From a virus, in UHGV virus genome UHGV-0214301: a DNA stretch of 10,316 bases; one strand, written 5' to 3'. A program made the position numbers and the translations under genes. Numbering within the stretch: position 1 is the stretch's first letter; each line of letters starts with the position of its first letter. Below, piece after piece: positions 1 to 10,316 of this stretch. A model generated the notes under the pieces. It was not told the origin of the DNA. It made no database searches and was given only the letters and a program-made list of their open reading frames with translations.

Positions 1-1
1 T

Positions 2-967
2 ACCCAGACTATCCGCATGATTCTGGTTGTCACGAATACCGAAGCCATCACGCTGAAAATCGACCCGTCGGTGGTACTGGCGACCCGTAAATACGTGGAT
101 GATGAAGTCCTGGAATTAAGACTGTATGTGGATGACAAGATGAGAAACCACATTGCCGCACAGGATCCTCATATCCAGTATGCGCAGAAACATAATCCGA
201 CATTTACCGGAGAACCAAAAGCGCCGACGCCTGCCGCAGGAAATAACACCACGCGGATTGCGACCACTGAGTTTGTTCAGGCTGCTATTATCGCTCTGAT
301 TAACGGTGCGCCTGCCACGCTGGACACACTGAAAGAAATTGCCGCGGCCATTAACAATGACCCGAAATTCAGCACCACCATTAACAATGCGCTGTCAGGT
401 AAGCAGCCACTGGATGAGACGCTGACTCATTTGAGTGGAAAGGATGTTGCCGGTCTTCTCGCATACCTTGGTTTGGGAGAAGGCTCAGCATTACCTGTTG
501 GGGTGCCTGTTCCGTGGCCTTCAGCCACTCCGCCAACAGGCTGGCTGAAATGCAATGGTGCGGCTTTTTCTGCTGAAGAATACCCGGAACTGGCAAAGGC
601 TTACCCGACCAATAAATTGCCTGATTTACGAGGTGAATTTATTCGTGGCTGGGATGACGGGCGTGGTATTGATAATGGGCGAAGCCTTCTTACTGTTCAG
701 GGGTATGCAACAGAGGATCACGCTCATGGATTACCGTCAAGATCCACGATTGTGACTGATGCAACGATTAATTTTTATTTTGATGAAAGCTGGGTAAATA
801 GTGGCACAGACATTATCAAAAGAGGAAACACAAACGATGCCGGATTACCAGCACCGGATTATGGAACCTTTAAAACATATAAACAATCAGTGGCTGGTTT
901 AGGTGCCGCAGCCTCAGAAACGCGTCCGCGTAATATTGCATTTAACTATATCGTGAGGGCAGCCTGA
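2..967 (+). CDS. H: Tail fibre protein, C-terminal part (5' end lies upstream of the window); P2 gpH equivalent
   Basis: Open frame runs from the window edge (frame of position 2) to TGA at 965-967. The translation has a repeated ATTEFV-type fibre shaft motif and a C-terminal segment (PWPSATPPTGWL...GEFIRGWDDGRGID...HAHGLP) typical of Mu S/P1 S-type tail-collar fibre tips. The stop overlaps the start of the next gene as TGATG. Identification by recognition, not search. Confidence 0.88.
   Translation, partial: TQTIRMILVVTNTEAITLKIDPSVVLATRKYVDDEVLELRLYVDDKMRNHIAAQDPHIQYAQKHNPTFTGEPKAPTPAAGNNTTRIATTEFVQAAIIALINGAPATLDTLKEIAAAINNDPKFSTTINNALSGKQPLDETLTHLSGKDVAGLLAYLGLGEGSALPVGVPVPWPSATPPTGWLKCNGAAFSAEEYPELAKAYPTNKLPDLRGEFIRGWDDGRGIDNGRSLLTVQGYATEDHAHGLPSRSTIVTDATINFYFDESWVNSGTDIIKRGNTNDAGLPAPDYGTFKTYKQSVAGLGAAASETRPRNIAFNYIVRAA
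456..481. other. Candidate hix/gix-like 26-bp invertase crossover site, embedded in H at the constant/variable junction
   Basis: Sequence TTCTCGCATACC-TT-GGTTTGGGAGAA is an imperfect dyad: the left half and the reverse complement of the right half (TTCTCCCAAACC) agree at 9 of 12 positions. As I recall hixL (TTCTTGAAAACCAAGGTTTTTGATAA) it matches at about 19 of 26 positions, including the ACC-NN-GGTTT core. It encodes LLAYLGLGE, immediately before the collar-type variable tip. Confidence 0.4.
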
Positions 968-1569
968 TGCATAAAGCAATATTAAATAGTGAGTTTATTG
1001 CAACAAAGGCAGGGGATGTTACCGTTTATAACTACGATGGTGAAACACGGGAATATATTTCCACGTCAACTGAATATCTTGCTGTGGGTGTCGGTATTCC
1101 GGCATGTTCCTGTCTGGATGCACCTGGCATACATAAGGTTGGTTATGCAATCTGTCGTTCTGTGAATTTAAATTCATGGGAATATGTGCCAGACCATCGC
1201 GGTGAAATCGTCTATAGCACCGAAACAGGAGAATCGAAAGAAATCACAGCTCCGGGTGATTATCCTGAAAATACAACCACTATCGCCCCGTTAACGCCAT
1301 ACGATGAATGGAATGGTGAGAAATGGGTGACAGATACCGAGACACAGCATGGCGCAGCAGTAGATGCAGCAGAAGCACAGCGCCAGTCGCTGATTGATAC
1401 TGCAATGGCCTCCATCAATCTGATTCAACTGAAATTACAGGCCGGACGGAAGCTGACGCAGGCAGAAACAACCCGCCTTAACGCTGTGCTGGATTACATT
1501 GACGCGGTGACGGCAACAGATACCAGCACAGCGCCGGATGTCATCTGGCCTGAACTGCCGGAGGCGTAG
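967..1569 (+). CDS. G: Tail fibre assembly protein (Tfa/Mu U family; P2 gpG position)
   Basis: 200-aa ORF whose ATG overlaps the H stop (TGATG). The C-terminus (LNAVLDYIDAVTATDTSTAPDVIWPELPEA) carries the conserved Tfa signature ending APD-x-WP-x-x-P. It sits directly after the fibre gene. P2 gpG is 175 aa as I recall, so this is a different Tfa allele. Confidence 0.85.
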   Translation: MHKAILNSEFIATKAGDVTVYNYDGETREYISTSTEYLAVGVGIPACSCLDAPGIHKVGYAICRSVNLNSWEYVPDHRGEIVYSTETGESKEITAPGDYPENTTTIAPLTPYDEWNGEKWVTDTETQHGAAVDAAEAQRQSLIDTAMASINLIQLKLQAGRKLTQAETTRLNAVLDYIDAVTATDTSTAPDVIWPELPEA

Positions 1570-1669
1570 GCCATTCAATATCTGGCGCACCAGAAGTATC
1601 GACCAGCTCCAGTGCGTCCAGATAATCTAACCACAAATTGTATTGTTCTAAATCGCCACCTTTTAGCAG
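1541..1669 (-). pseudogene. Remnant of an oppositely oriented tail-fibre assembly gene (tfa', C-terminal ~40 codons only)
   Basis: The minus-strand frame translates to LLKGGDLEQYNLWLDYLDALELVDTSGAPDIEWPTPPAVQAR-stop. This aligns with the G C-terminus on the + strand (NAVLDYIDAVTATDTSTAPDVIWPELPEA). It is cut off upstream by an in-frame stop (+ strand 1670-1672) and overlaps the last ~29 nt of G head to head. Confidence 0.6.
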
Positions 1670-2137
1670 TCAACATCCGATCCTCTTTTGAAGGGAAAGG
1701 CATTAATCCATATGGGGTTCCTGAATTGTTAGCGCCAATTTCTTTCCGGATGCAGACTAAGAATTCACTCATATGCCATGCATTTTTTATAAACGACAAG
1801 CATTGCCCAAGAGTGCGTTAGATGATAGGTGGGAAGAAGTGACAGAAACAGCTAATATCATTGTTCAGCGTAGAGTTGGCAGTGGGCTATGCTCCATCAC
1901 TCAGTGTCCGATAGTATAGAGGCTTGCAGTCCAGTGCACAGATTAGTATGTGTCCGTTTTGTTTCATCCATGTATTGGGAACTGTATAGTTAAATAAAAA
2001 GTGTACAAATTACAATCGCCACTGTAATCATGTGAAAGAATAGATTAATATATCGCATCGGCAAACGTAAGGATGATGTTAAATCGCTTGTGGTTTCTAC
2101 TCACAAAATGATGTTTTATTAATTTTAGGGTTTTATT

Positions 2138-2162
2138 AAAAGGGGATGTAATATCCTTTTTT
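2138..2162 (+). terminator. Possible weak hairpin followed by a T-tract, ~48 bp upstream of the acyltransferase ATG
   Basis: AAAAGGGGAT-gtaat-ATCCTTTTTT: a short GGAT/ATCC stem extendable through G-U pairs, followed by T6. The stem is short and AT-rich, so function is uncertain. Confidence 0.2.
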
Positions 2163-2209
2163 ATAAATTTGATGTATGGTTTTTTGAACTTACACATAAA
2201 AGGTATAAC

Positions 2210-3364
2210 ATGCTGCCTAATCAATCAGTTTTACTTATCTGGATGTTTGTGTTGATGACCGCTATCATTGTTTTATTCTCCACGCAACAATTTAATTTCT
2301 TGGACAAGGATGTGAAATACCGAAATGAGCAGATAGATGGTCTCCGTTTTTTCTTATCAATATTTGTTGTGTTTCATCATTATGTGTTGTCTGAATCATA
2401 TTTTTTCGGCTCAGGATGGACATATGATGCAATCAAAGAGTATCCAGTTAACCAAGTTATTGGTAGATATGGGGTTTCCTTATTTTTCATGATCTCTGGA
2501 TTCTTGTTTTGCAATATTAAATCAAGCGCTAGAGATTGGTTTGTTTTTTATATAAAAAGATTCTTCAGGATAGCGCCTTTATTTACTTTATCATCTTGCG
2601 TTTGTATATCTTTAGCCTTTTTTTTATCACAAAATCCGTCAACATCAGACATATCACTAAAGAGCCTCGCCTATTGGTTTAATATGGGGTTGTCCATGAC
2701 TAAACCAGATATATTTAGTTTGCAAAACTCAAGTTTAATTAACGCTTCTGTAACTTGGACTTTGTACTGGGAATGGGGTTTTTATTTTTCACTGCCATTT
2801 GTATTATTTCTAAAATCAAAGTGGTGTGGGCTATCATTGTCTATCAGTATTATCTTTTTATGTGTTTTTATTTACGCAGATATTAATTCATTCAATGCAA
2901 CGCTCATTTCCTTCTTTTCTATAGGGTTTCTCTGCGCAGAGTTAACAAAAATAATTTCGCTATCTGTGCGAACTTGTAATGTGCTTATTGTTTTTGGGGG
3001 GGTGTTCTGCATTTTTATCGTGGATGATCCATATACAATCTTCAGTATTCCAGGTGTTGGTCTGATTTTTTTTGCTATATCAATGGGCGGAGATTTTTTT
3101 GGTTTATTAAAAATGAAAGGTGTTAGAAGACTTGGTGAAATAACATATAGTACTTATATGTTGCATGGAATTTTTCTCTATGTTCTAAATTTTTTTATTT
3201 CTCCTAATATAAGCAAACAGACATACATGTTGTTGTCGAGCTTTACTATCTTGCTTATTCTAATAATATCTTCATTTACATTTTATGTAATAGAAGCCCC
3301 ATTAAATAAATTAGGTTCTCAAATCGCCACTCGTATGCTTAAGACACATTTGAAGAGTCATTAA
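2210..3364 (+). CDS. Acyltransferase family 3 (OafA/Oac-like) integral membrane protein; probable surface-polysaccharide/LPS O-acyltransferase carried as cargo
   Basis: 384-aa ORF, hydrophobic throughout with multiple predicted membrane-spanning segments. It carries the AT3 hallmarks as I recognise them: an N-terminal R-x-IDGLR-x(10)-H motif (RNEQIDGLRFFLSIFVVFHH), GVSLFFMISGFLF, and a C-terminal ITYSTYMLH plus FYVIEAPLNKLG. About 30% GC on counted lines, sharply lower than the flanking tail genes. No fused SGNH domain. Start codon not certain (an internal Met lies at residue 17). Confidence 0.85.
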   Translation: MLPNQSVLLIWMFVLMTAIIVLFSTQQFNFLDKDVKYRNEQIDGLRFFLSIFVVFHHYVLSESYFFGSGWTYDAIKEYPVNQVIGRYGVSLFFMISGFLFCNIKSSARDWFVFYIKRFFRIAPLFTLSSCVCISLAFFLSQNPSTSDISLKSLAYWFNMGLSMTKPDIFSLQNSSLINASVTWTLYWEWGFYFSLPFVLFLKSKWCGLSLSISIIFLCVFIYADINSFNATLISFFSIGFLCAELTKIISLSVRTCNVLIVFGGVFCIFIVDDPYTIFSIPGVGLIFFAISMGGDFFGLLKMKGVRRLGEITYSTYMLHGIFLYVLNFFISPNISKQTYMLLSSFTILLILIISSFTFYVIEAPLNKLGSQIATRMLKTHLKSH

Positions 3365-3384
3365 ACATAGATAATGTTATTTTT

Positions 3385-3414
3385 GCTCTGAAGCGGTTTT
3401 TATTACTTCAGAGC
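3385..3414. terminator. Perfect 9-bp inverted repeat hairpin just after the acyltransferase stop; possible terminator or transcript-stabilising element
   Basis: GCTCTGAAG-cggtttttatta-CTTCAGAGC, 20 bp past the stop at 3362-3364. A T-run precedes the stem and another lies in the loop, but no U-tract follows on either strand, so it is not a canonical intrinsic terminator. Confidence 0.25.
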
Positions 3415-3466
3415 AATACGGATTCCGACAGGTCGGGGTTAAAAAACTGCGCATAACATTATCTGA

Positions 3467-3700
3467 GGGTGCCATTCTGGTTCTCTGGAAGCAACCAGAG
3501 CTAAAGATCGTATTGGTGGCAGACGTCCGAAACTCACCGCGAGTGAGTGGGAGCAGGCCGGACGGTTGCTGGCTGCGGGGGAGTCACGTCAACGTGTGGC
3601 GCTGATTTTTGATATTGGCCTGTCACCGCTCTATAAAAAATTCCCCTCATCAGCGACAAAGAATAAATTGTGTCATCCCTTAGCCAACCGGGACAAATAG
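3467..3700 (+). pseudogene. 3'-terminal remnant of a serine DNA invertase gene (Gin/Hin/Pin/Cin family), C-terminal HTH domain only
   Basis: The frame translates to ...LEATRAKDRIGGRRPKLTASEWEQAGRLLAAGESRQRVALIFDIGLSPLYKKFP..., matching the conserved C-terminal DNA-binding end of Gin/Pin-type invertases (GRIGGR-P-KLT...EWEQAGRLLA-G..R..VA-I.....S.LYK.FP). The frame is closed by TGA at 3464-3466 and there is no catalytic N-terminal domain or start codon upstream. Confidence 0.7.
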
Positions 3701-3740
3701 CCTGACATCTCCGGCACAACTGAAAATACCACTCACCCAT
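3668..3740 (+). promoter_or_regulatory. Putative Ogr-dependent late promoter for the FI operon (PF)
   Basis: Position is immediately upstream of FI. A partial dyad TTGT-N21-ACAA (3668-3696) is centred about 55 bp upstream of a plausible start near 3737. It does not match the TGT-N12-ACA consensus I recall for P2/P4 late promoters, so this is a low-confidence call. Confidence 0.3.
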
Positions 3741-3759
3741 TAACCACGGAGTTAAACGG

Positions 3760-4950
3760 ATGAGTGACTATCATCACGGCGTGCAGGTGCTGGAGATTAA
3801 CGACGGCACCCGCGTCATTTCCACCGTATCCACCGCCATTGTTGGCATGGTCTGCACGGCCAGCGATGCGGATGCGGAAACCTTCCCCCTCAATAAACCT
3901 GTGCTGATTACCAATGTGCAGAGCGCAATTGCAAAGGCCGGTAAAAAAGGCACGCTGGCGGCATCGTTGCAGGCCATCGCTGACCAGTCAAAACCGGTCA
4001 CCGTTGTCGTGCGCGTGGAAGACGGCACCGGTGATGACGAGGAAACGAAACTCGCGCAGACCGTTTCCAATATCATCGGCACCACCGACGAAAACGGTCA
4101 GTACACCGGACTGAAAGCCCTGCTGGCGGCGGAGTCGGTAACCGGTGTTAAACCGCGTATTCTCGGTGTGCCGGGACTGGACACCAAAGAGGTGGCTGTT
4201 GCACTGGCATCAGTCTGTCAGAAGCTGCGCGCTTTCGGGTATATCAGCGCATGGGGCTGTAAGACCATTTCCGAGGTGAAAGCCTACCGCCAGAATTTCA
4301 GCCAGCGTGAGCTGATGGTCATCTGGCCGGATTTCCTCGCATGGGATACGGTCACCAGTACCACCGCCACCGCGTATGCCACCGCCCGTGCGCTGGGTCT
4401 GCGCGCTAAAATCGACCAGGAGCAGGGCTGGCATAAAACGCTGTCCAACGTCGGGGTGAACGGTGTTACCGGCATCAGCGCATCCGTCTTCTGGGATTTG
4501 CAGGAGTCCGGCACCGATGCTGACCTGCTTAACGAGTCAGGCGTCACTACGCTGATTCGCCGCGACGGTTTCCGATTCTGGGGTAACCGTACCTGCTCTG
4601 ATGACCCGCTGTTCCTCTTTGAAAACTATACCCGCACCGCGCAGGTGCTGGCCGACACGATGGCTGAGGCGCACATGTGGGCGGTGGACAAGCCCATCAC
4701 CGCAACGCTGATTCGCGACATCGTTGACGGCATCAATGCCAAATTCCGTGAGCTGAAAACAAACGGCTATATCGTGGATGCGACCTGCTGGTTCAGCGAA
4801 GAATCCAACGATGCGGAAACCCTCAAGGCCGGAAAACTGTATATCGACTACGACTATACACCGGTGCCTCCTCTTGAAAACCTGACCCTGCGCCAGCGTA
4901 TTACCGATAAATACCTGGCAAATCTGGTCACCTCGGTTAACAGCAATTAA
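3760..4950 (+). CDS. FI: Contractile tail sheath protein
   Basis: 396-aa ORF, the same length as P2 gpFI as I recall, first gene of the FI-FII-E-T-U-D order. GGAG Shine-Dalgarno about 9 nt upstream. High-GC codon usage like the neighbouring tail genes. Confidence 0.93.
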   Translation: MSDYHHGVQVLEINDGTRVISTVSTAIVGMVCTASDADAETFPLNKPVLITNVQSAIAKAGKKGTLAASLQAIADQSKPVTVVVRVEDGTGDDEETKLAQTVSNIIGTTDENGQYTGLKALLAAESVTGVKPRILGVPGLDTKEVAVALASVCQKLRAFGYISAWGCKTISEVKAYRQNFSQRELMVIWPDFLAWDTVTSTTATAYATARALGLRAKIDQEQGWHKTLSNVGVNGVTGISASVFWDLQESGTDADLLNESGVTTLIRRDGFRFWGNRTCSDDPLFLFENYTRTAQVLADTMAEAHMWAVDKPITATLIRDIVDGINAKFRELKTNGYIVDATCWFSEESNDAETLKAGKLYIDYDYTPVPPLENLTLRQRITDKYLANLVTSVNSN

Positions 4951-4962
4951 GGAGCCTGACCG

Positions 4963-5481
4963 ATGGCAATGCCGCGCAAACTCAAGTTAATGAACGTCTT
5001 TCTGAACGGCTACAGCTATCAGGGCGTCGCGAAGTCCGTCACGCTGCCAAAACTGACCCGTAAGCTCGAAAACTATCGCGGTGCGGGGATGAACGGCAGC
5101 GCACCGGTAGACCTCGGCCTTGATGACGATGCGCTGTCAATGGAGTGGTCGCTCGGGGGCTTCCCGGATTCGGTTATCTGGGAGCTTTACGCCGCAACCG
5201 GTGTGGATGCTGTGCCGATTCGTTTTGCAGGCTCTTACCAGCGTGACGATACCGGCGAAACGGTGGCCGTCGAAGTGGTCATGCGTGGACGTCAGAAAGA
5301 AATCGACACCGGCGAGGGTAAACAGGGAGAAGACACTGAGTCGAAAATCTCCGTGGTCTGCACCTATTTCCGGCTGACGATGGACGGTAAGGAGCTGGTC
5401 GAAATCGACACCATCAACATGATTGAGAAGGTGAACGGCGTCGACCGGCTGGAGCAACACCGCCGCAATATCGGCCTGTGA
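4963..5481 (+). CDS. FII: Tail tube protein
   Basis: 172-aa ORF, the length of P2 gpFII, 12 nt after the FI stop, preceded by AAGGAG. Confidence 0.93.
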   Translation: MAMPRKLKLMNVFLNGYSYQGVAKSVTLPKLTRKLENYRGAGMNGSAPVDLGLDDDALSMEWSLGGFPDSVIWELYAATGVDAVPIRFAGSYQRDDTGETVAVEVVMRGRQKEIDTGEGKQGEDTESKISVVCTYFRLTMDGKELVEIDTINMIEKVNGVDRLEQHRRNIGL

Positions 5482-5537
5482 TTTTCATCCGGTCAGCCAG
5501 GCTGACCGGTTAACCCTGATTCAGAAGTGAGAAAACC

Positions 5538-5813
5538 ATGAACAAAGAAAATGTGATTACCCTGGACAATCCGGTCAAGCGTGGTGAGCAGGTCATCGAA
5601 CAGGTCACGCTGATGAAACCCAGTGCCGGGACGCTGCGCGGTGTCAGTCTGGCTGCGGTCGCAAACTCCGAAGTTGATGCACTAATTAAGGTGTTGCCGC
5701 GCATGACGGCACCGATGCTGACCGAGCAGGAAGTTGCCGCACTGGAACTGCCTGACCTTGTGGCGCTGGCCGGTAAGGTGGTCGGTTTTTTGTCGCCGAA
5801 CTCGGTGCAGTAA
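5538..5813 (+). CDS. E: Tail assembly chaperone E (zero-frame product)
   Basis: 91-aa ORF between the tube and tape-measure genes, the length of P2 gpE. It contains the slippery heptamer near its 3' end. Confidence 0.88.
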   Translation: MNKENVITLDNPVKRGEQVIEQVTLMKPSAGTLRGVSLAAVANSEVDALIKVLPRMTAPMLTEQEVAALELPDLVALAGKVVGFLSPNSVQ

Positions 5814-5965
5814 CGTTCCCGAAAAATCTCTCGGTCGATGACCTGATGGCGGATGTGGCAGTGATATTTCACTGGCCGCCATCAGAACTGTATCCCATGA
5901 GCCTGACCGAACTCATCACATGGCGCGAAAAGGCGCTCCGGCGAAGCGGAAACACGAATGAGTAA
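5538..5965 (+). CDS. E+E': Tail assembly chaperone E+E' (-1 frameshift fusion; 85 aa zero frame + 57 aa in -1 frame)
   Basis: Slipping at 5786-5792 and continuing in the -1 frame gives ...GFLVAELGAVTFPKNLSVDDLMADVAVIFHWPPSELYPMSLTELITWREKALRRSGNTNE-stop. The total is 142 aa, equal to P2 E+E' as I recall, and the end overlaps the T start at 5958, as in the P2 and lambda G/GT arrangement. Confidence 0.75.
5786..5792 (+). other. Programmed -1 ribosomal frameshift slippery heptamer T TTT TTG
   Basis: The zero-frame codons are TTT (5787-5789) and TTG (5790-5792), fitting the X XXY YYZ pattern. The -1 frame is open from here to TAA at 5963-5965. Confidence 0.75.
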
Positions 5966-8405
5966 CAATGTAAAATTACAGGTATTGCTCAGGGCTGTTG
6001 ACCAGGCATCCCGCCCGTTTAAATCCATCCGCACAGCGAGCAAATCGCTGTCGGGGGATATCCGGGAAACACAAAAATCACTGCGAGAGCTGAACGGTCA
6101 GGCATCCCGTATTGAGGGATTTCGCAAGACAAGTGCACAGCTCGCCGTGACTGGTCATGCACTTGAAAAGGCTCGGCAGGAAGCCGAAGCCCTTACCACA
6201 CAGTTTAAAAACACCGAACGTCCGACCCGTGCTCAGGCGAAAGTGCTGGAGTCCGCGAAGCGTGCGGCGGAGGACTTACAGGCGAAATATAACCGCCTGA
6301 CGGATTCCGTTAAACGCCAGCAGCGGGAACTGGCCGTTGTGGGAATTAATACCCGCAATCTTGCACGTGATGAGCAGGGACTGAAAAACCGTATCAGTGA
6401 AACCACCGCACAGCTTAACCGTCAGCGTGACGCGCTGGCGCGTGTCAGTGCGCAACAGGCAAAACTTAACGCAGTAAAACAGCGTTATCAGGCAGGCAAG
6501 GAACTGGCCGGAAATATGGCCTCAGTGGGCGCTGCCGGTGTGGGGATTGCGGCGGCGGGAACGATGGCCGGAGTTAAGTTGCTGACGCCCGGTTATGAGT
6601 TTGCGCAGAAAAACTCAGAATTGCAGGCCGTGCTCGGTGTGGCAAAAGATTCCGCCGAAATGGCCGCGCTCCGCAAGCAGGCGCGCCAGCTCGGCGATAA
6701 TACCGCCGCCTCGGCGGATGATGCAGCCGGTGCGCAGATTATCATTGCGAAAGCGGGTGGAGATGTTGATGCCATTCAGGCGGCAACGCCGGTCACGCTG
6801 AATATGGCGCTGGCGAACCGTCGCACGATGGAAGAAAACGCCGCCCTGCTGATGGGGATGAAATCCGCCTTTCAGCTTTCAAACGATAAGGTCGCTCATA
6901 TCGGGGATGTTCTCTCCATGACGATGAACAAAACCGCCGCCGATTTTGACGGCATGAGCGATGCGCTGACCTATGCCGCACCTGTGGCAAAAAATGCCGG
7001 TGTCAGCATTGAAGAAACCGCCGCAATGGTCGGGGCGCTGCATGATGCAAAAATCACAGGCTCAATGGCGGGAACGGGAAGCCGTGCCGTGTTAAGCCGC
7101 CTGCAGGCACCGACGGGAAAAGCATGGGATGCACTCAAAGAGCTTGGTGTGAAAACCTCAGACAGTAAGGGAAACACCCGACCAGTATTTACCATTCTGA
7201 AAGAAATGCAGGCCAGCTTTGAGAAAAACCGGCTCGGTACTGCCCAGCAGGCTGAATACATGAAAACCATTTTCGGGGAGGAGGCCAGTTCAGCCGCCGC
7301 CGTGCTGATGACTGCCGCCTCAACCGGAAAGCTGGACAAACTGACCGCTGCGTTTAAAGCCTCAGACGGAAAGACCGCAGAGCTGGTAAATATCATGCAG
7401 GACAACCTCGGCGGTGACTTTAAGGAGTTTCAGTCCGCTTATGAGGCGGTGGGGACTGACCTGTTTGACCAGCAGGAAGGCGCACTGCGTAAGCTCACGC
7501 AGACGGCCACAAAGTATGTGTTAAAACTCGACGGCTGGATCCAGAAAAACAAATCACTGGCGTCAACCATCGGCCTTATTGTCGGTGGTGCACTGGCGCT
7601 TACTGGCATCATCGGTGCAATTGGTCTTGTAGCCTGGCCGGTTATCACCGGCATTAATGCCATCATCGCGGCAGCAGGCGCAATGGGGGCAATCTTCACG
7701 ACGGTTGGCAGTGCTGTTATGACGGCCATCGGGGCGATTAGCTGGCCGATTGTGGCTGTGGTGGCCGCCATTGTCGCCGGGGCGTTGCTTATCCGTAAAT
7801 ACTGGGAGCCTGTCAGCGCATTCTTTGGCGGTGTGGTTGAAGGGCTGAAAGCGGCATTTGCGCCAGTGGGGGAACTGTTCACGCCACTTAAGCCGGTGTT
7901 TGACTGGCTGGGTGAAAAGTTACAGGCCGCGTGGCAGTGGTTTAAAAACCTGATTGCCCCGGTCAAAGCTACCCAGGACACCCTGAACCGTTGCCGTGAC
8001 ACGGGCGTCATGTTCGGGCAGGCACTGGCTGACGCGCTGATGCTGCCGCTTAATGCGTTCAACAAACTGCGCAGTGGTATTGACTGGGTACTGGAAAAAC
8101 TCGGTGTTATCAACAAAGAGTCAGACACACTTGACCAGACCGCCGCCAGAACTCAAGCCGCCACGTATGGCAGCGGTGGTTATATTCCGGCGACCAGCTC
8201 TTATGCAGGTTATCAGGCTTATCAGCCGGTCACGGCACCGGCTGGCCGCTCTTATGTGGACCAGAGTAAAAACGAATATCACATCAGCCTGACGGGTGGT
8301 ACTGCACCGGGGACACAGCTTGACCGCCAGTTACAGGATGCGCTCGAAAAATACGAGCGGGATAAACGTGCGCGCGCCCGTGCCAGCATGATGCATGACG
8401 GTTAA
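5958..8405 (+). CDS. T: Tail tape measure protein
   Basis: 815-aa ORF, the length of P2 gpT. The N-terminal region is rich in Q/R/A/L (coiled-coil-like), and there is a long Gly/Ala/Ile-rich hydrophobic segment (LASTIGLIVGGALALTGIIGAIGLVAWPVITG...), typical of tape measure proteins. Position follows E/E'. Confidence 0.93.
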   Translation: MSNNVKLQVLLRAVDQASRPFKSIRTASKSLSGDIRETQKSLRELNGQASRIEGFRKTSAQLAVTGHALEKARQEAEALTTQFKNTERPTRAQAKVLESAKRAAEDLQAKYNRLTDSVKRQQRELAVVGINTRNLARDEQGLKNRISETTAQLNRQRDALARVSAQQAKLNAVKQRYQAGKELAGNMASVGAAGVGIAAAGTMAGVKLLTPGYEFAQKNSELQAVLGVAKDSAEMAALRKQARQLGDNTAASADDAAGAQIIIAKAGGDVDAIQAATPVTLNMALANRRTMEENAALLMGMKSAFQLSNDKVAHIGDVLSMTMNKTAADFDGMSDALTYAAPVAKNAGVSIEETAAMVGALHDAKITGSMAGTGSRAVLSRLQAPTGKAWDALKELGVKTSDSKGNTRPVFTILKEMQASFEKNRLGTAQQAEYMKTIFGEEASSAAAVLMTAASTGKLDKLTAAFKASDGKTAELVNIMQDNLGGDFKEFQSAYEAVGTDLFDQQEGALRKLTQTATKYVLKLDGWIQKNKSLASTIGLIVGGALALTGIIGAIGLVAWPVITGINAIIAAAGAMGAIFTTVGSAVMTAIGAISWPIVAVVAAIVAGALLIRKYWEPVSAFFGGVVEGLKAAFAPVGELFTPLKPVFDWLGEKLQAAWQWFKNLIAPVKATQDTLNRCRDTGVMFGQALADALMLPLNAFNKLRSGIDWVLEKLGVINKESDTLDQTAARTQAATYGSGGYIPATSSYAGYQAYQPVTAPAGRSYVDQSKNEYHISLTGGTAPGTQLDRQLQDALEKYERDKRARARASMMHDG

Positions 8406-8419
8406 GGAGGTGACGAAAA

Positions 8420-8899
8420 ATGATGCTCGCGTTAGGTATGTTTGTTTTTATGCGCCAGACGCTGCCACACCAGACCATGCAGCGTGAATCAGATTATCGC
8501 TGGCCGTCAAATTCCCGTATCGGTAAACGGGATGCCTACCAGTTTCTCGGCGTTGGTGAGGAAAACATGACGCTTGCCGGTGTGCTTTATCCCGAACTGA
8601 CCGGCGGCAAGCTGACGATGACCACGCTCAGACTGATGGCAGAGGAAGGCCGGGCGTGGCCGTTGCTGGATGGCACAGGCATGATTTACGGCATGTATGT
8701 CATCAGCAGGGTGAGTGAAACAGGGAGTATTTTCTTTGCAGACGGCACACCCCGGAAAATTGATTTTACGCTGTCACTCACCCGCGTGGATGAATCACTG
8801 GCCGCGCTTTATGGCGATATCGGTAAACAGGCAGAATCGCTCATCGGTAAGGCTGGCAGTATGGCGACTAAATTCACGGGGATGACGGGGGCGGAATAA
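8420..8899 (+). CDS. U: Tail protein U (tail tube terminator/baseplate-proximal protein)
   Basis: 159-aa ORF, the length of P2 gpU, with a strong AAGGAGG Shine-Dalgarno at 8404-8410. The stop overlaps the D start as TAATG. Confidence 0.88.
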   Translation: MMLALGMFVFMRQTLPHQTMQRESDYRWPSNSRIGKRDAYQFLGVGEENMTLAGVLYPELTGGKLTMTTLRLMAEEGRAWPLLDGTGMIYGMYVISRVSETGSIFFADGTPRKIDFTLSLTRVDESLAALYGDIGKQAESLIGKAGSMATKFTGMTGAE

Positions 8900-10062
8900 T
8901 GCTGGATGCGCTGACATTTGATGCAGGCAGTACGCTGACGCCGGATTACATGCTGATGCTCGACAGCAGGGATATTACCGGCAATATCAGCGACCGTCTG
9001 ATGAGCATGACCCTGACGGATAACCGGGGCTTTGAGGCTGACCAGCTTGATATTGAACTGAACGATGCCGACGGGCAGGTCGGGCTGCCGGTTCGTGGCG
9101 CTGTCCTGACGGTGTATATCGGCTGGAAAGGTTTTGCCCTGGTATGCAAAGGGAAATTTACCGTTGATGAGGTTGAACACCGGGGCGCGCCGGATGTGGT
9201 TACCATCCGCGCCCGGAGTGCAGATTTTCGCGGGACGCTCAATTCCCGCCGGGAAGGCTCCTGGCATGACACCACGCTCGGTGCGATTGTTGAGGTGATA
9301 GCCTCCCGTAACAGGCTGGAAGCCAGTGTCGCGCCGTCACTGGCCGGAATTAAAATCCCGCACATCGACCAGTCGCAGGAGTCCGATGCGAAATTCCTGA
9401 CCCGTCTTGCTGAACGCAACGGCGGTGAGGTGTCGGTAAAAATGGGAAAATTGTTGTTTCTCAAAGCGGGGCAGGGGGTGACGGCCAGTGGTAAAAAAAT
9501 CCCGCAGGTCACCATAACCCGCAGCGACGGCGACCGCCATCATTTTGCGATTGCTGACCGTGGAGCCTATACCGGCGTAACGGCAAAGTGGTTACACACC
9601 AAAGACCCGAAGCCACAAAAGCAGAAGGTAAAACTGAAACGCAAAAAGAAAGAGAAACACCTGCGCGCACTGGAGCACCCGAAAGCGAAACCGGTCACGC
9701 AGAAGAAAGCGCCAAAAGTACCGGAAGCGCGCGAAGGTGAATACATGGCAGGTGAGGCTGACAACGTTTTTGCCCTGACCACGGTATATGCCACGAAAGC
9801 GCAGGCCATGCGCGCCGCTCAGGCGAAGTGGGATAAGCTGCAACGGGGCGTTGCGGAGTTCTCCATCAGTCTGGCTACTGGTCGGGCAGATATTTACACG
9901 GAAACGCCGGTCAGAGTATCAGGCTTTAAGCGCGTCATAGACGAGCAGGACTGGACAATCACTAAGGTGACACATTTTCTGAATAATAGCGGCTTCACGA
10001 CGTCCCTGGAGCTTGAGGTCAGGCTTTCTGATGTGGAGTACGAAACAGAAGATGATGAGTGA
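8899..10062 (+). CDS. D: Tail protein D (late gene D, tail/baseplate hub family)
   Basis: 387-aa ORF, the length of P2 gpD, translationally coupled to U and last gene before ogr. Contains a lysine-rich basic segment (KDPKPQKQKVKLKRKKKEKHLRALEHPKAKPVTQKKAPK). Confidence 0.88.
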   Translation: MLDALTFDAGSTLTPDYMLMLDSRDITGNISDRLMSMTLTDNRGFEADQLDIELNDADGQVGLPVRGAVLTVYIGWKGFALVCKGKFTVDEVEHRGAPDVVTIRARSADFRGTLNSRREGSWHDTTLGAIVEVIASRNRLEASVAPSLAGIKIPHIDQSQESDAKFLTRLAERNGGEVSVKMGKLLFLKAGQGVTASGKKIPQVTITRSDGDRHHFAIADRGAYTGVTAKWLHTKDPKPQKQKVKLKRKKKEKHLRALEHPKAKPVTQKKAPKVPEAREGEYMAGEADNVFALTTVYATKAQAMRAAQAKWDKLQRGVAEFSISLATGRADIYTETPVRVSGFKRVIDEQDWTITKVTHFLNNSGFTTSLELEVRLSDVEYETEDDE

Positions 10063-10080
10063 TGTTTTTATTTTATCTGT

Positions 10081-10109
10081 TTGTTTTATAAGGATAAATT
10101 AACTAAAAT
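10081..10109 (+). promoter_or_regulatory. Putative sigma-70 promoter of ogr
   Basis: TTGTTT (10081-10086), a 17-bp spacer, then TAAAAT (10104-10109). The predicted transcript start is about 27 nt upstream of the ATG at 10144, which has an AGGTG Shine-Dalgarno 7 nt upstream. Confidence 0.4.
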
Positions 10110-10143
10110 GGCACCATCAACAAAACCGGAAGAGGTGCTCGCG

Positions 10144-10316
10144 ATGTTTCATTGTCCTTTATGCCAGCATGCCGCACATGCGCGTACAAGTCGCTATATC
10201 ACTGACACGACAAAAGAGCGTTATCACCAGTGTCAGAACGTGAATTGCAGCGCCACGTTCATCACTTATGAGTCGGTACAGCGATACATCGTGAAGCCGG
10301 GAGAAGTCCACGCCGT
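10144..10316 (+). CDS. ogr: Late transcription activator Ogr (Cys4 zinc finger), 3' end beyond the window
   Basis: Translation MFHCPLCQHAAHARTSRYITDTTKERYHQCQNVNCSATFITYESVQRYIVKPGEVHA... matches P2 Ogr as I remember it, including the CPLC...CQNVNC zinc-binding cysteines. An in-frame ATG at 10108 would add 12 residues but lies inside the predicted -10 element, so 10144 is preferred. Confidence 0.9.
   Translation, partial: MFHCPLCQHAAHARTSRYITDTTKERYHQCQNVNCSATFITYESVQRYIVKPGEVHA

Follow-up and report, generated by a model that had tools for sequence, protein, structure and literature searches.

An AT3 acyltransferase gene as a probable lysogenic-conversion moron in the G-FI slot of a P2-like Escherichia coli prophage

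The virus genome UHGV-0214301 was analysed over a stretch of 10,316 nucleotides (hereafter the window), which an open reading frame listing and Pfam scans identify as the late, tail-encoding region of a P2-like Escherichia coli prophage. Between the tail-fibre assembly gene G and the tail sheath gene FI the window carries an interval of 2.2 kb (1570-3759), which contains one cargo gene encoding a transmembrane acyltransferase of the AT3 family, bordered on both sides by remnants of other phage genes. The features of the window are collected in Table 1.

The original prediction, made from the letters of the window, had described this interval as compositionally foreign (about 30% against about 57% guanine-plus-cytosine, GC), and both figures were right when GC was calculated in sliding windows and per feature. 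The composition is far from uniform: the GC fraction is 0.53 at 1351-1650, falls to 0.30-0.34 over 1951-3450 and lies at 0.50-0.60 from 3451 on. The cargo gene has 32.6% GC, with 31% at third codon positions (GC3). The corresponding GC values are 56.8% for FI (GC3 69%), 56.8% for FII, 55.9% for T, 53.7% for U and 55.4% for D, and GC3 ranges from 59 to 70% across these genes. Overall, 1570-3759 has 37.0% GC versus 55.5% for 3760-10316. The compositional island is thus real, but its AT-rich core is only about 1.45 kb long (about 1969-3417) and does not fill the predicted 2.2 kb. Next to the core, GC is intermediate (42% at 1570-1790, 44.5% at 1791-1990 and 51% at 3424-3700), and this flanking part of the 2.2-kb interval is relic DNA of other origins. 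Two further expectations held: the interval has exactly one intact non-structural reading frame, the cargo gene, and degraded recombination relics are present in the form of an invertase remnant and an inverted tail-fibre-assembly pseudogene. Neither 5,426 complete RefSeq genomes of E. coli nor 50,697 phage records contained a match of at least 65% identity to the island core, and we ascribe a foreign origin to the core because it lacks such a match in the complete E. coli genomes. Compared with the rest of the phage, GC is also lower (41-45%) at 600-1350, where H has its variable C-terminal part and G its 5′ part, in keeping with host-range modules that can be exchanged.

The cargo protein has 384 residues and is listed at NCBI without a specific name, as "acyltransferase family protein [Escherichia coli]". 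Its match to PF01757 (Acyl_transf_3) scores 94 bits, where the gathering cut-off is 31 (E=1.2e-26), and covers profile positions 2-321 of 326. This is the only Pfam domain (residues 40-354), so that the protein is AT3-only, without an SGNH domain, like Oac and OacB. No NCBIfam equivalog, no PADLOC family and no PDB sequence matched it. The motifs R-X10-H and RXXR are essential in AT3 enzymes (PMC9833829). Both are present, the first in transmembrane helix 1 (R46...H57) and the second in transmembrane helix 3 (R117-F-F-R120), and R46, H57, R117 and R120 are invariant in 60 aligned homologues. An AlphaFold model built from this 60-sequence alignment reached a predicted local distance difference test score (pLDDT) of 95 and a predicted template-modelling score (pTM) of 0.92, with about 11 long helices, and has the predicted fold of the polytopic transmembrane acyltransferase superfamily. 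By its alignment and model, the protein is a member of the AT3 family with the complete set of catalytic motifs and a matching fold.

The best phage match was OacB of Shigella phage Sf101, with 34% identity over 97% of the length. In pairwise comparisons the E-value was 1e-51 for OacB and 1e-3 for WecH, and OpgC gave no meaningful alignment. The O-antigen residue on which OacB acts is rhamnose III, which undergoes 3/4-O-acetylation (PMC8952252, PMC4159516), and mutagenesis of OacB has identified R47, H58, W71, F98, R116, R119 and S146 as critical residues (PMC8952252). Six of these seven (R47, H58, W71, F98, R116 and R119) are identical in the cargo protein, and the seventh, S146, is replaced by T145 in a variable column. 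Codon 145 (2642-2644) is itself polymorphic, with A145 in alleles P0122-P0124, P0128 and P0133. With OacB, which has OacC as a close relative, the cargo protein shares the AT3-only architecture, the approximately 11 helices, the location in an AT-rich prophage moron and the same 48-bp element in front of the gene. The carriers, on the other hand, differ: oacB of Sf101 resides in a P22-like Lederbergvirus, in the slot between the integrase and tailspike genes.

We therefore favour, with a probability of about 0.62, the reading that the island is a lysogenic-conversion moron: a horizontally acquired AT3 inner-membrane acyltransferase gene in the G-FI slot, whose product probably O-acetylates the O-antigen. 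Because of the analogy to OacB and the shared upstream element, the O-antigen is the favoured, though far from certain, target. Like OacB, the enzyme would take acetyl-CoA from the cytoplasm via a pore lined by the R-X10-H and RXXR residues. On the periplasmic side, the acetyl group would then be transferred to a sugar within the repeat unit of the O-antigen, by O-acetylation. The surface antigen of the lysogen would thereby be altered, and with it the susceptibility to phages and antibodies that depend on the O-antigen.

Several observations speak against this reading. An identity of 34% to OacB denotes homology, not demonstrated orthology, and neither the substrate nor the acceptor sugar can be transferred from it. 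The nearest homologues, the next relatives outside the E. coli cluster in a database of 5.8 billion proteins, are 44-46% identical and lie outside O-antigen clusters and phages. NeaT, a PF01757 protein encoded in the same slot of another prophage and the only AT3 protein of this slot that has been studied, was not shown to modify the O-antigen, and its substrate is undefined (PMC3573123). A simple scan called no consensus sigma-70 promoter upstream of the cargo gene, and on the plus strand no terminator-like site was called between the stop codon of G (1569) and the cargo gene; expression may therefore come from late read-through only. Frameshifted alleles of 149 and 305 amino acids exist, and the six amino-acid polymorphisms listed among the full-length alleles are all non-synonymous by definition, so that purifying selection is not demonstrated; the substitutions were too few to compute the ratio of non-synonymous to synonymous rates (dN/dS).

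Part of these points would be explained if the enzyme acylated another glycan, such as enterobacterial common antigen (ECA), capsule, colanic acid, periplasmic glucans or peptidoglycan, and acted as a NeaT-like niche-fitness or virulence factor instead of a serotype converter. The 44-46% relatives are encoded singly on the chromosomes of other Enterobacterales, in one example between ompW and trpA. In general, many glycans are modified by AT3 proteins (PMC9558356). NeaT itself, from the same slot, alters aggregation and phagocyte interaction (PMC3573123). We nevertheless consider a different glycan rather unlikely, given that the protein is far closer to OacB than to WecH or OpgC, that the upstream element is common to oacB and the P22-like conversion slots and that the relationship to NeaT is distant, with 27% identity over 190 of 384 residues (E 1e-8).

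The resemblance to neaT is closer in setting than in sequence. [quoted passage not shown] In contrast, NeaT has 343 amino acids and is encoded on the opposite strand, and no invertase or tail-fibre assembly (tfa) relics are annotated in the surroundings of neaT. The low identity and the lack of a DNA match to CFT073 records speak against the two proteins being orthologues. On these comparisons, the cargo gene is a separate acquisition, from a different AT3 subfamily, at the same site. An AT3 cargo in the G-FI slot has thus already been described, and the gene of the window is a further, uncharacterised case. Like the island core, neaT is rare; it was found in 9 of the 5,426 complete E. coli genomes.

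The remaining points against conversion would suit a silent hitchhiker, that is, recent AT-rich DNA which is unexpressed in the lysogen and brings no benefit, in a slot that tolerates insertions. Besides the missing consensus promoter, the frameshifted alleles and the exclusively non-synonymous protein variants, the absence of the gene from the complete genomes is in line with this. Yet the reading frame is intact, all catalytic motifs are kept and the structure model is very confident. The intact allele moreover recurs, with over 100 assemblies and at least two different F-operon backgrounds carrying it. For the analogous neaT, a 211-bp region upstream of the gene drives its expression (PMC3573123). 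Together, these points make a silent passenger improbable. For the AT-rich region directly upstream of the cargo gene (1969-2209), DNA searches of E. coli genomes and phage records found no homologue. The stable hairpin behind the gene has no U-tract and was not called by the terminator scan; it is a possible terminator or 3′ stabiliser.

The location of the island agrees with the predicted Z/fun position. In the P2 reference fun(Z) sits exactly between G and FI, a site that Wiles et al. 2013 named 'moron position 2' (PMC3573123). The cargo gene likewise lies between the two, flanked by a Caudo_TAP gene and the sheath gene, and upstream of the late-promoter region pF. That this is a variable region of P2-like phages was also borne out, as prophages with an FI gene at least 97.8% identical to that of the window have different contents. 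At least eight different slot contents were seen among near-identical prophages. Four complete genomes were sampled in which the start of FI is 97.8-99.7% identical to that of the window, and all of them differ from the window in content: an invertase with decayed fibre genes; a DUF5677 gene with an integrase fragment and a hypothetical gene; one hypothetical gene; and a complete invertible segment. Further occupants of the slot are fun(Z), the 'Z-region' open reading frames of P2-EC46 and P2-EC48, and neaT. About 1,549 chromosome or plasmid records have an FI with no less than 95% identity to that of the window over 3760-4360, and an FI match of whatever identity is present in 1,696 of the 5,426 genomes. 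The cargo gene, which might have been universal in P2-like phages, is thus rare, and the slot contents vary.

The genes fun(Z) of P2 and the Z-regions of P2-EC46 and P2-EC48 (AJ512680, AJ512681) occupy the same slot and are annotated as (putative) lysogenic-conversion genes, but their proteins are unrelated to the cargo protein: fun(Z) belongs to no Pfam family, ORF1 of EC46 matches Peptidase_U49 and ORF3 of EC48 weakly matches GNAT. For the inverted repeats of these Z-regions no megablast match was found in the window, where only the stretch upstream of FI matched; a dedicated comparison of the repeats was not run. ORF1 of P2-EC46 (L017 294-1295) matches Peptidase_U49 with E=3.5e-7, which we take to be the family of the Lit abortive-infection protease, and may be a defence-type cargo. 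This occupant, together with fun(Z), which by its annotation blocks T5, and the defence hotspots carried by P2-like phages (PMC9122126), raises the question whether the cargo gene is an intracellular anti-phage defence gene of the old/tin type found in other P2 hotspots and not a surface modifier. This is very improbable: the protein matched 0 families of PADLOC-DB at E<=0.01, and its features are those of a polytopic acyltransferase of the membrane in which the AT3 catalytic set is complete. Any phage exclusion it conferred would act by modification of the receptor, which is the conversion reading that we favour.

Table 1. Features of the window; positions are those of the window unless another record is named
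Feature	Position	Strand	Remarks
Tail-fibre gene H, 3′ part	17..967	+	Constant to ~482, then expressed variable C-terminus; Pfam Collar, Phage_tail_fib
Sole remaining Din-type crossover site	456..481	.	26 bp, TTCTCGCATACCTTGGTTTGGGAGAA; lies in H
G-like tail-fibre assembly gene	967..1569	+	Expressed orientation; Pfam Caudo_TAP, E=6e-32
Relic pseudogene, second (inverted) tail-fibre assembly gene of the invertible segment	1572..1775	-	
Relic of about 200 bp, flank of a P22-like serotype-conversion slot	1769..1968	+	Ends in the 48-bp element (1921-1968)
AT-rich 5′ region of the cargo gene	1969..2209	+	28% GC; Shine-Dalgarno AAGG at 2200-2203
AT3-only transmembrane O-acyltransferase gene (cargo gene)	2210..3364	+	384 aa, OacB-like
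Stable hairpin	3383..3416	+	19 nt past the stop codon; -19.8 kcal/mol, z = -4.07 vs shuffles
DNA-invertase (serine recombinase) pseudogene	3418..3700	+	C-terminal helix-turn-helix part kept
pF late-promoter region of the FI operon, intact	3680..3759	+	98.8% identical to P2 17572-17651
Tail sheath gene FI	3760..4950	+	Right slot border; Pfam Phage_sheath_1, Phage_sheath_1C, Gp18_domIII_N
Tube gene FII	4963-5481		Followed by E/E'
Tape measure gene T	5958-8405		
U	8420-8899		
D	8899-10062		
Other copies of the 48-bp element	L015 3875-3922, L029 2433-2480, L030 2499-2546, L031 3502-3549, L032 3534-3581		

In a distant DNA search of the upstream region, the sole significant match was between 1920-1968 of the window and Sf101 (86% identity), where the element lies on the same strand, 73 bp upstream of oacB. 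The conserved non-coding element of 48 bp (GGCTTGCAGTCCAGTGCACAGATTAGTATGTGTCCGTTTTGTTTCATC) is 84-86% identical in its other copies. These were found in phages 611R6 and Gally, in 57 of the 5,426 complete E. coli genomes, where the element is always unannotated, and in 20 IMG/VR contigs. In all contexts inspected, it lies within a P22-like phage or prophage remnant, mostly between the integrase and tailspike genes. In most cases it is about 30-40 bp past IntS; in loci of the Sf101 type it is farther from a different integrase. In P22-like phages it is preceded by a hairpin (AAGGTGGAGTGATCCACCTT) that spans the stop codon of intS. The contents of the integrase-tailspike slot range from nothing to a small membrane protein, oacB, another AT3 O-acetylase or a CatB-like O-acetyltransferase. 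In the window the similarity extends beyond the element, since 1769-1968 aligns with 68% identity over 211 bp with a P22-like prophage remnant (L032), adjoining the tailspike gene, which is all that remains beside the element there. Because the cassette carries this slot's 48-bp element, which also lies upstream of oacB, it probably came from a P22-like integrase-tailspike conversion slot and brought some 200 bp of flanking DNA along. A donor carrying a closely related AT3 gene was not detected in the 5.8-billion-protein database or in IMG/VR; four relatives in IMG/VR are 36-38% identical and are not accompanied by the 48-bp element.

Other explanations for the element and the island ends were considered. 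A coding function of the element was rejected: some period-3 spacing is seen, but no frame has conservative changes, and the element is unannotated and intergenic in every record examined. It also differs from the attP reported for Sf101 (PMC4159516). In 1400-3900 and around the element, ARAGORN found 0 tRNAs and Rfam 0 matches at E<=1, and the fold z-score was 0.08. Transposon- or integron-like ends were likewise dismissed, as the direct and inverted repeats bounding the island are short and at chance level.

The second group of relics derives from a tail-fibre inversion switch. As intact comparators we used Peduovirus magyaro (NC_041848, L001) and the prophage of E. coli KL53 (L028). In NC_041848 the annotated order is H, G, inverted tfa, inverted fibre fragment, DNA invertase and FI; the window is 92% identical to it over 917-1666 and 97% identical from 3493 onward. 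KL53 carries the segment in the orientation opposite to that of the window, so that the sequence of the G-like gene is inverted there. Compared with the prophages of KL53 and T22, H shows 96% homology up to 482 and diverges beyond. This border coincides with a 31-bp stretch (452-482) that is a perfect inverted match to the second switch site of NC_041848. Within it lies the crossover site, which resembles the hix/gix/pix consensus. It is the only copy in the window (1 copy, 0 expected by chance), whereas the intact switch of NC_041848 has two.

The inverted tfa gene and the invertase gene are both decayed. The inverted tfa relic is 91-92% identical to the inverted tfa gene of NC_041848 and KL53 over 1570-1666, and 79% identical to other tfa genes over 1669-1775. 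Its minus-strand translation (1572-1775) ends in ...LEQYNLWLDYLDALELVDTSGAPDIEW, a terminus (...VDTSGAPDIEW) that is typical of tail-fibre assembly proteins; farther upstream, stop codons interrupt the frame. The invertase relic is without codons 1 to about 37 (about 111 bp), including the region of the catalytic serine, and has an internal deletion of about 190 bp (codons about 63-126) as well as a frameshift. Positions 3418-3492 correspond to invertase nucleotides ~112-187 at 75-83% identity and positions 3485-3700 to nucleotides ~379-594 at 97% identity. The retained 3′ part, in a frame other than that of the upstream piece, translates as ...GGRRPKLTASEWEQAGRLLAAGESRQRVALIFDIGLSPLYKKFP..., which reads as the helix-turn-helix end of a Hin/Gin-type invertase. 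The inner ends of the relics (3418-3492 and 1667-1775) are more diverged (75-83%) than the outer parts (91-97%); they may stem from a different phage lineage and not from decay in place.

With one crossover site and no intact serine invertase, the window does not have a functional Din-type switch. Judged by the alignments, the cassette has replaced the 5′ half of the inverted tfa gene, the alternative fibre C-terminus, the right crossover site and the first ~37 codons of the invertase. The fibre is thus locked in the H-G orientation, because the cassette replaced parts of the switch. The relics, the single site and the H/tfa modules, with 91-97% identity to those of intact switches, link the window to the Din-family switches (Gin/Cin/Pin/Hin type, as in NC_041848 and KL53), but in the window the switch is dead and the alternative fibre end is deleted.

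Combining both sets of relics, a tentative scenario would be that a conversion cassette was lifted from a P22-like slot into a P2-like switch, killing the switch and coupling a fixed host-range fibre with a new enzyme of surface modification, and that the H-G-AT3 module then spread by homologous recombination to different P2-like backbones, with the 48-bp element as a portable regulatory or recombination signal that accompanies genes for O-antigen modification. A parallel is offered by the sopE cassette of Salmonella SopE-phi, which Mirold et al. in 2001 reportedly described as a moron transferred between P2-like and lambdoid phages. In both cases cargo lies in the tail-fibre region of a P2-like phage and is linked to an unrelated phage family. 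The cargo is different, as sopE encodes a type III effector, and the cross-family link of the cassette in the window consists of the flank of about 200 bp.

The allele identical to that of the window (P0121) was found in 112 blocks of an assembly collection. All 24 contigs that were read, which represent 3 distinct places, have the same G-AT3-FI arrangement, one of them in a partly deleted prophage. Compared to four other carriers (L002 and L019-L021), the window differs at 0-2 sites over 1-3888, versus about 2.5-3% (151-185 differences) over 3889-10316. This sharp change in divergence at 3889 indicates that the H-G-AT3 module is present on at least two F-operon backgrounds, and it places a recombination breakpoint about 130 bp into FI. 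In one of these carriers, L019 (2606-2825), a deletion between the genes of tail proteins X and I has removed everything from holin to baseplate J. This prophage is defective but retains its cargo, the AT3 gene, along with the F operon and the fibre genes.

The cargo gene represents the second independent, unameliorated AT3 acyltransferase in the G-FI slot of P2-like coliphages. This second case strengthens the view of the slot as a preferred home of envelope-modifying cargo and not only of intracellular defence genes. If the O-antigen is indeed acetylated, the antigenicity and phage susceptibility of carriers would not be those of the O-serogroup to which they are typed, which would be relevant to serotyping, O-antigen vaccines and phage therapy. 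The dead switch provides a concrete route by which the gain of a cargo costs the phage its host-range switch. The upstream element hints at an exchange of conversion genes among phage families without relationship to one another, in which a short conserved element accompanies the genes. The 48-bp element shared with P22-like conversion loci, which is a new detail, the dead switch and the convergence of two unrelated AT3 genes on one slot are, in our opinion, the most noteworthy parts of this analysis.

P2 17572-17651 is annotated with an activator binding site and the transcription start of the F operon. The 80 bp directly in front of FI share 98.8% identity with this P2 pF region, and the F operon of the window therefore keeps its promoter. 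Longer contigs with the same cargo gene contain a full P2-type late region. The far end of one of them (L002) carries, according to Pfam, D and ogr, followed by host genes of the yegQ/yegP/baeR type. The same contig has, outside the region covered by the window, an open reading frame of 261 amino acids on the minus strand (4065-4850) without a Pfam family, between S-like and V-like genes. Situated where P2 has orf30, this frame is the second cargo-like gene of the prophage. In the window, the E/E' tail-assembly chaperone pair has its usual arrangement, with an open reading frame of 91 amino acids at 5538-5813 and another frame, of the GpE family, which extends to 5965 and thus into the beginning of T. 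This is the expected site of the programmed frameshift in P2-like phages.

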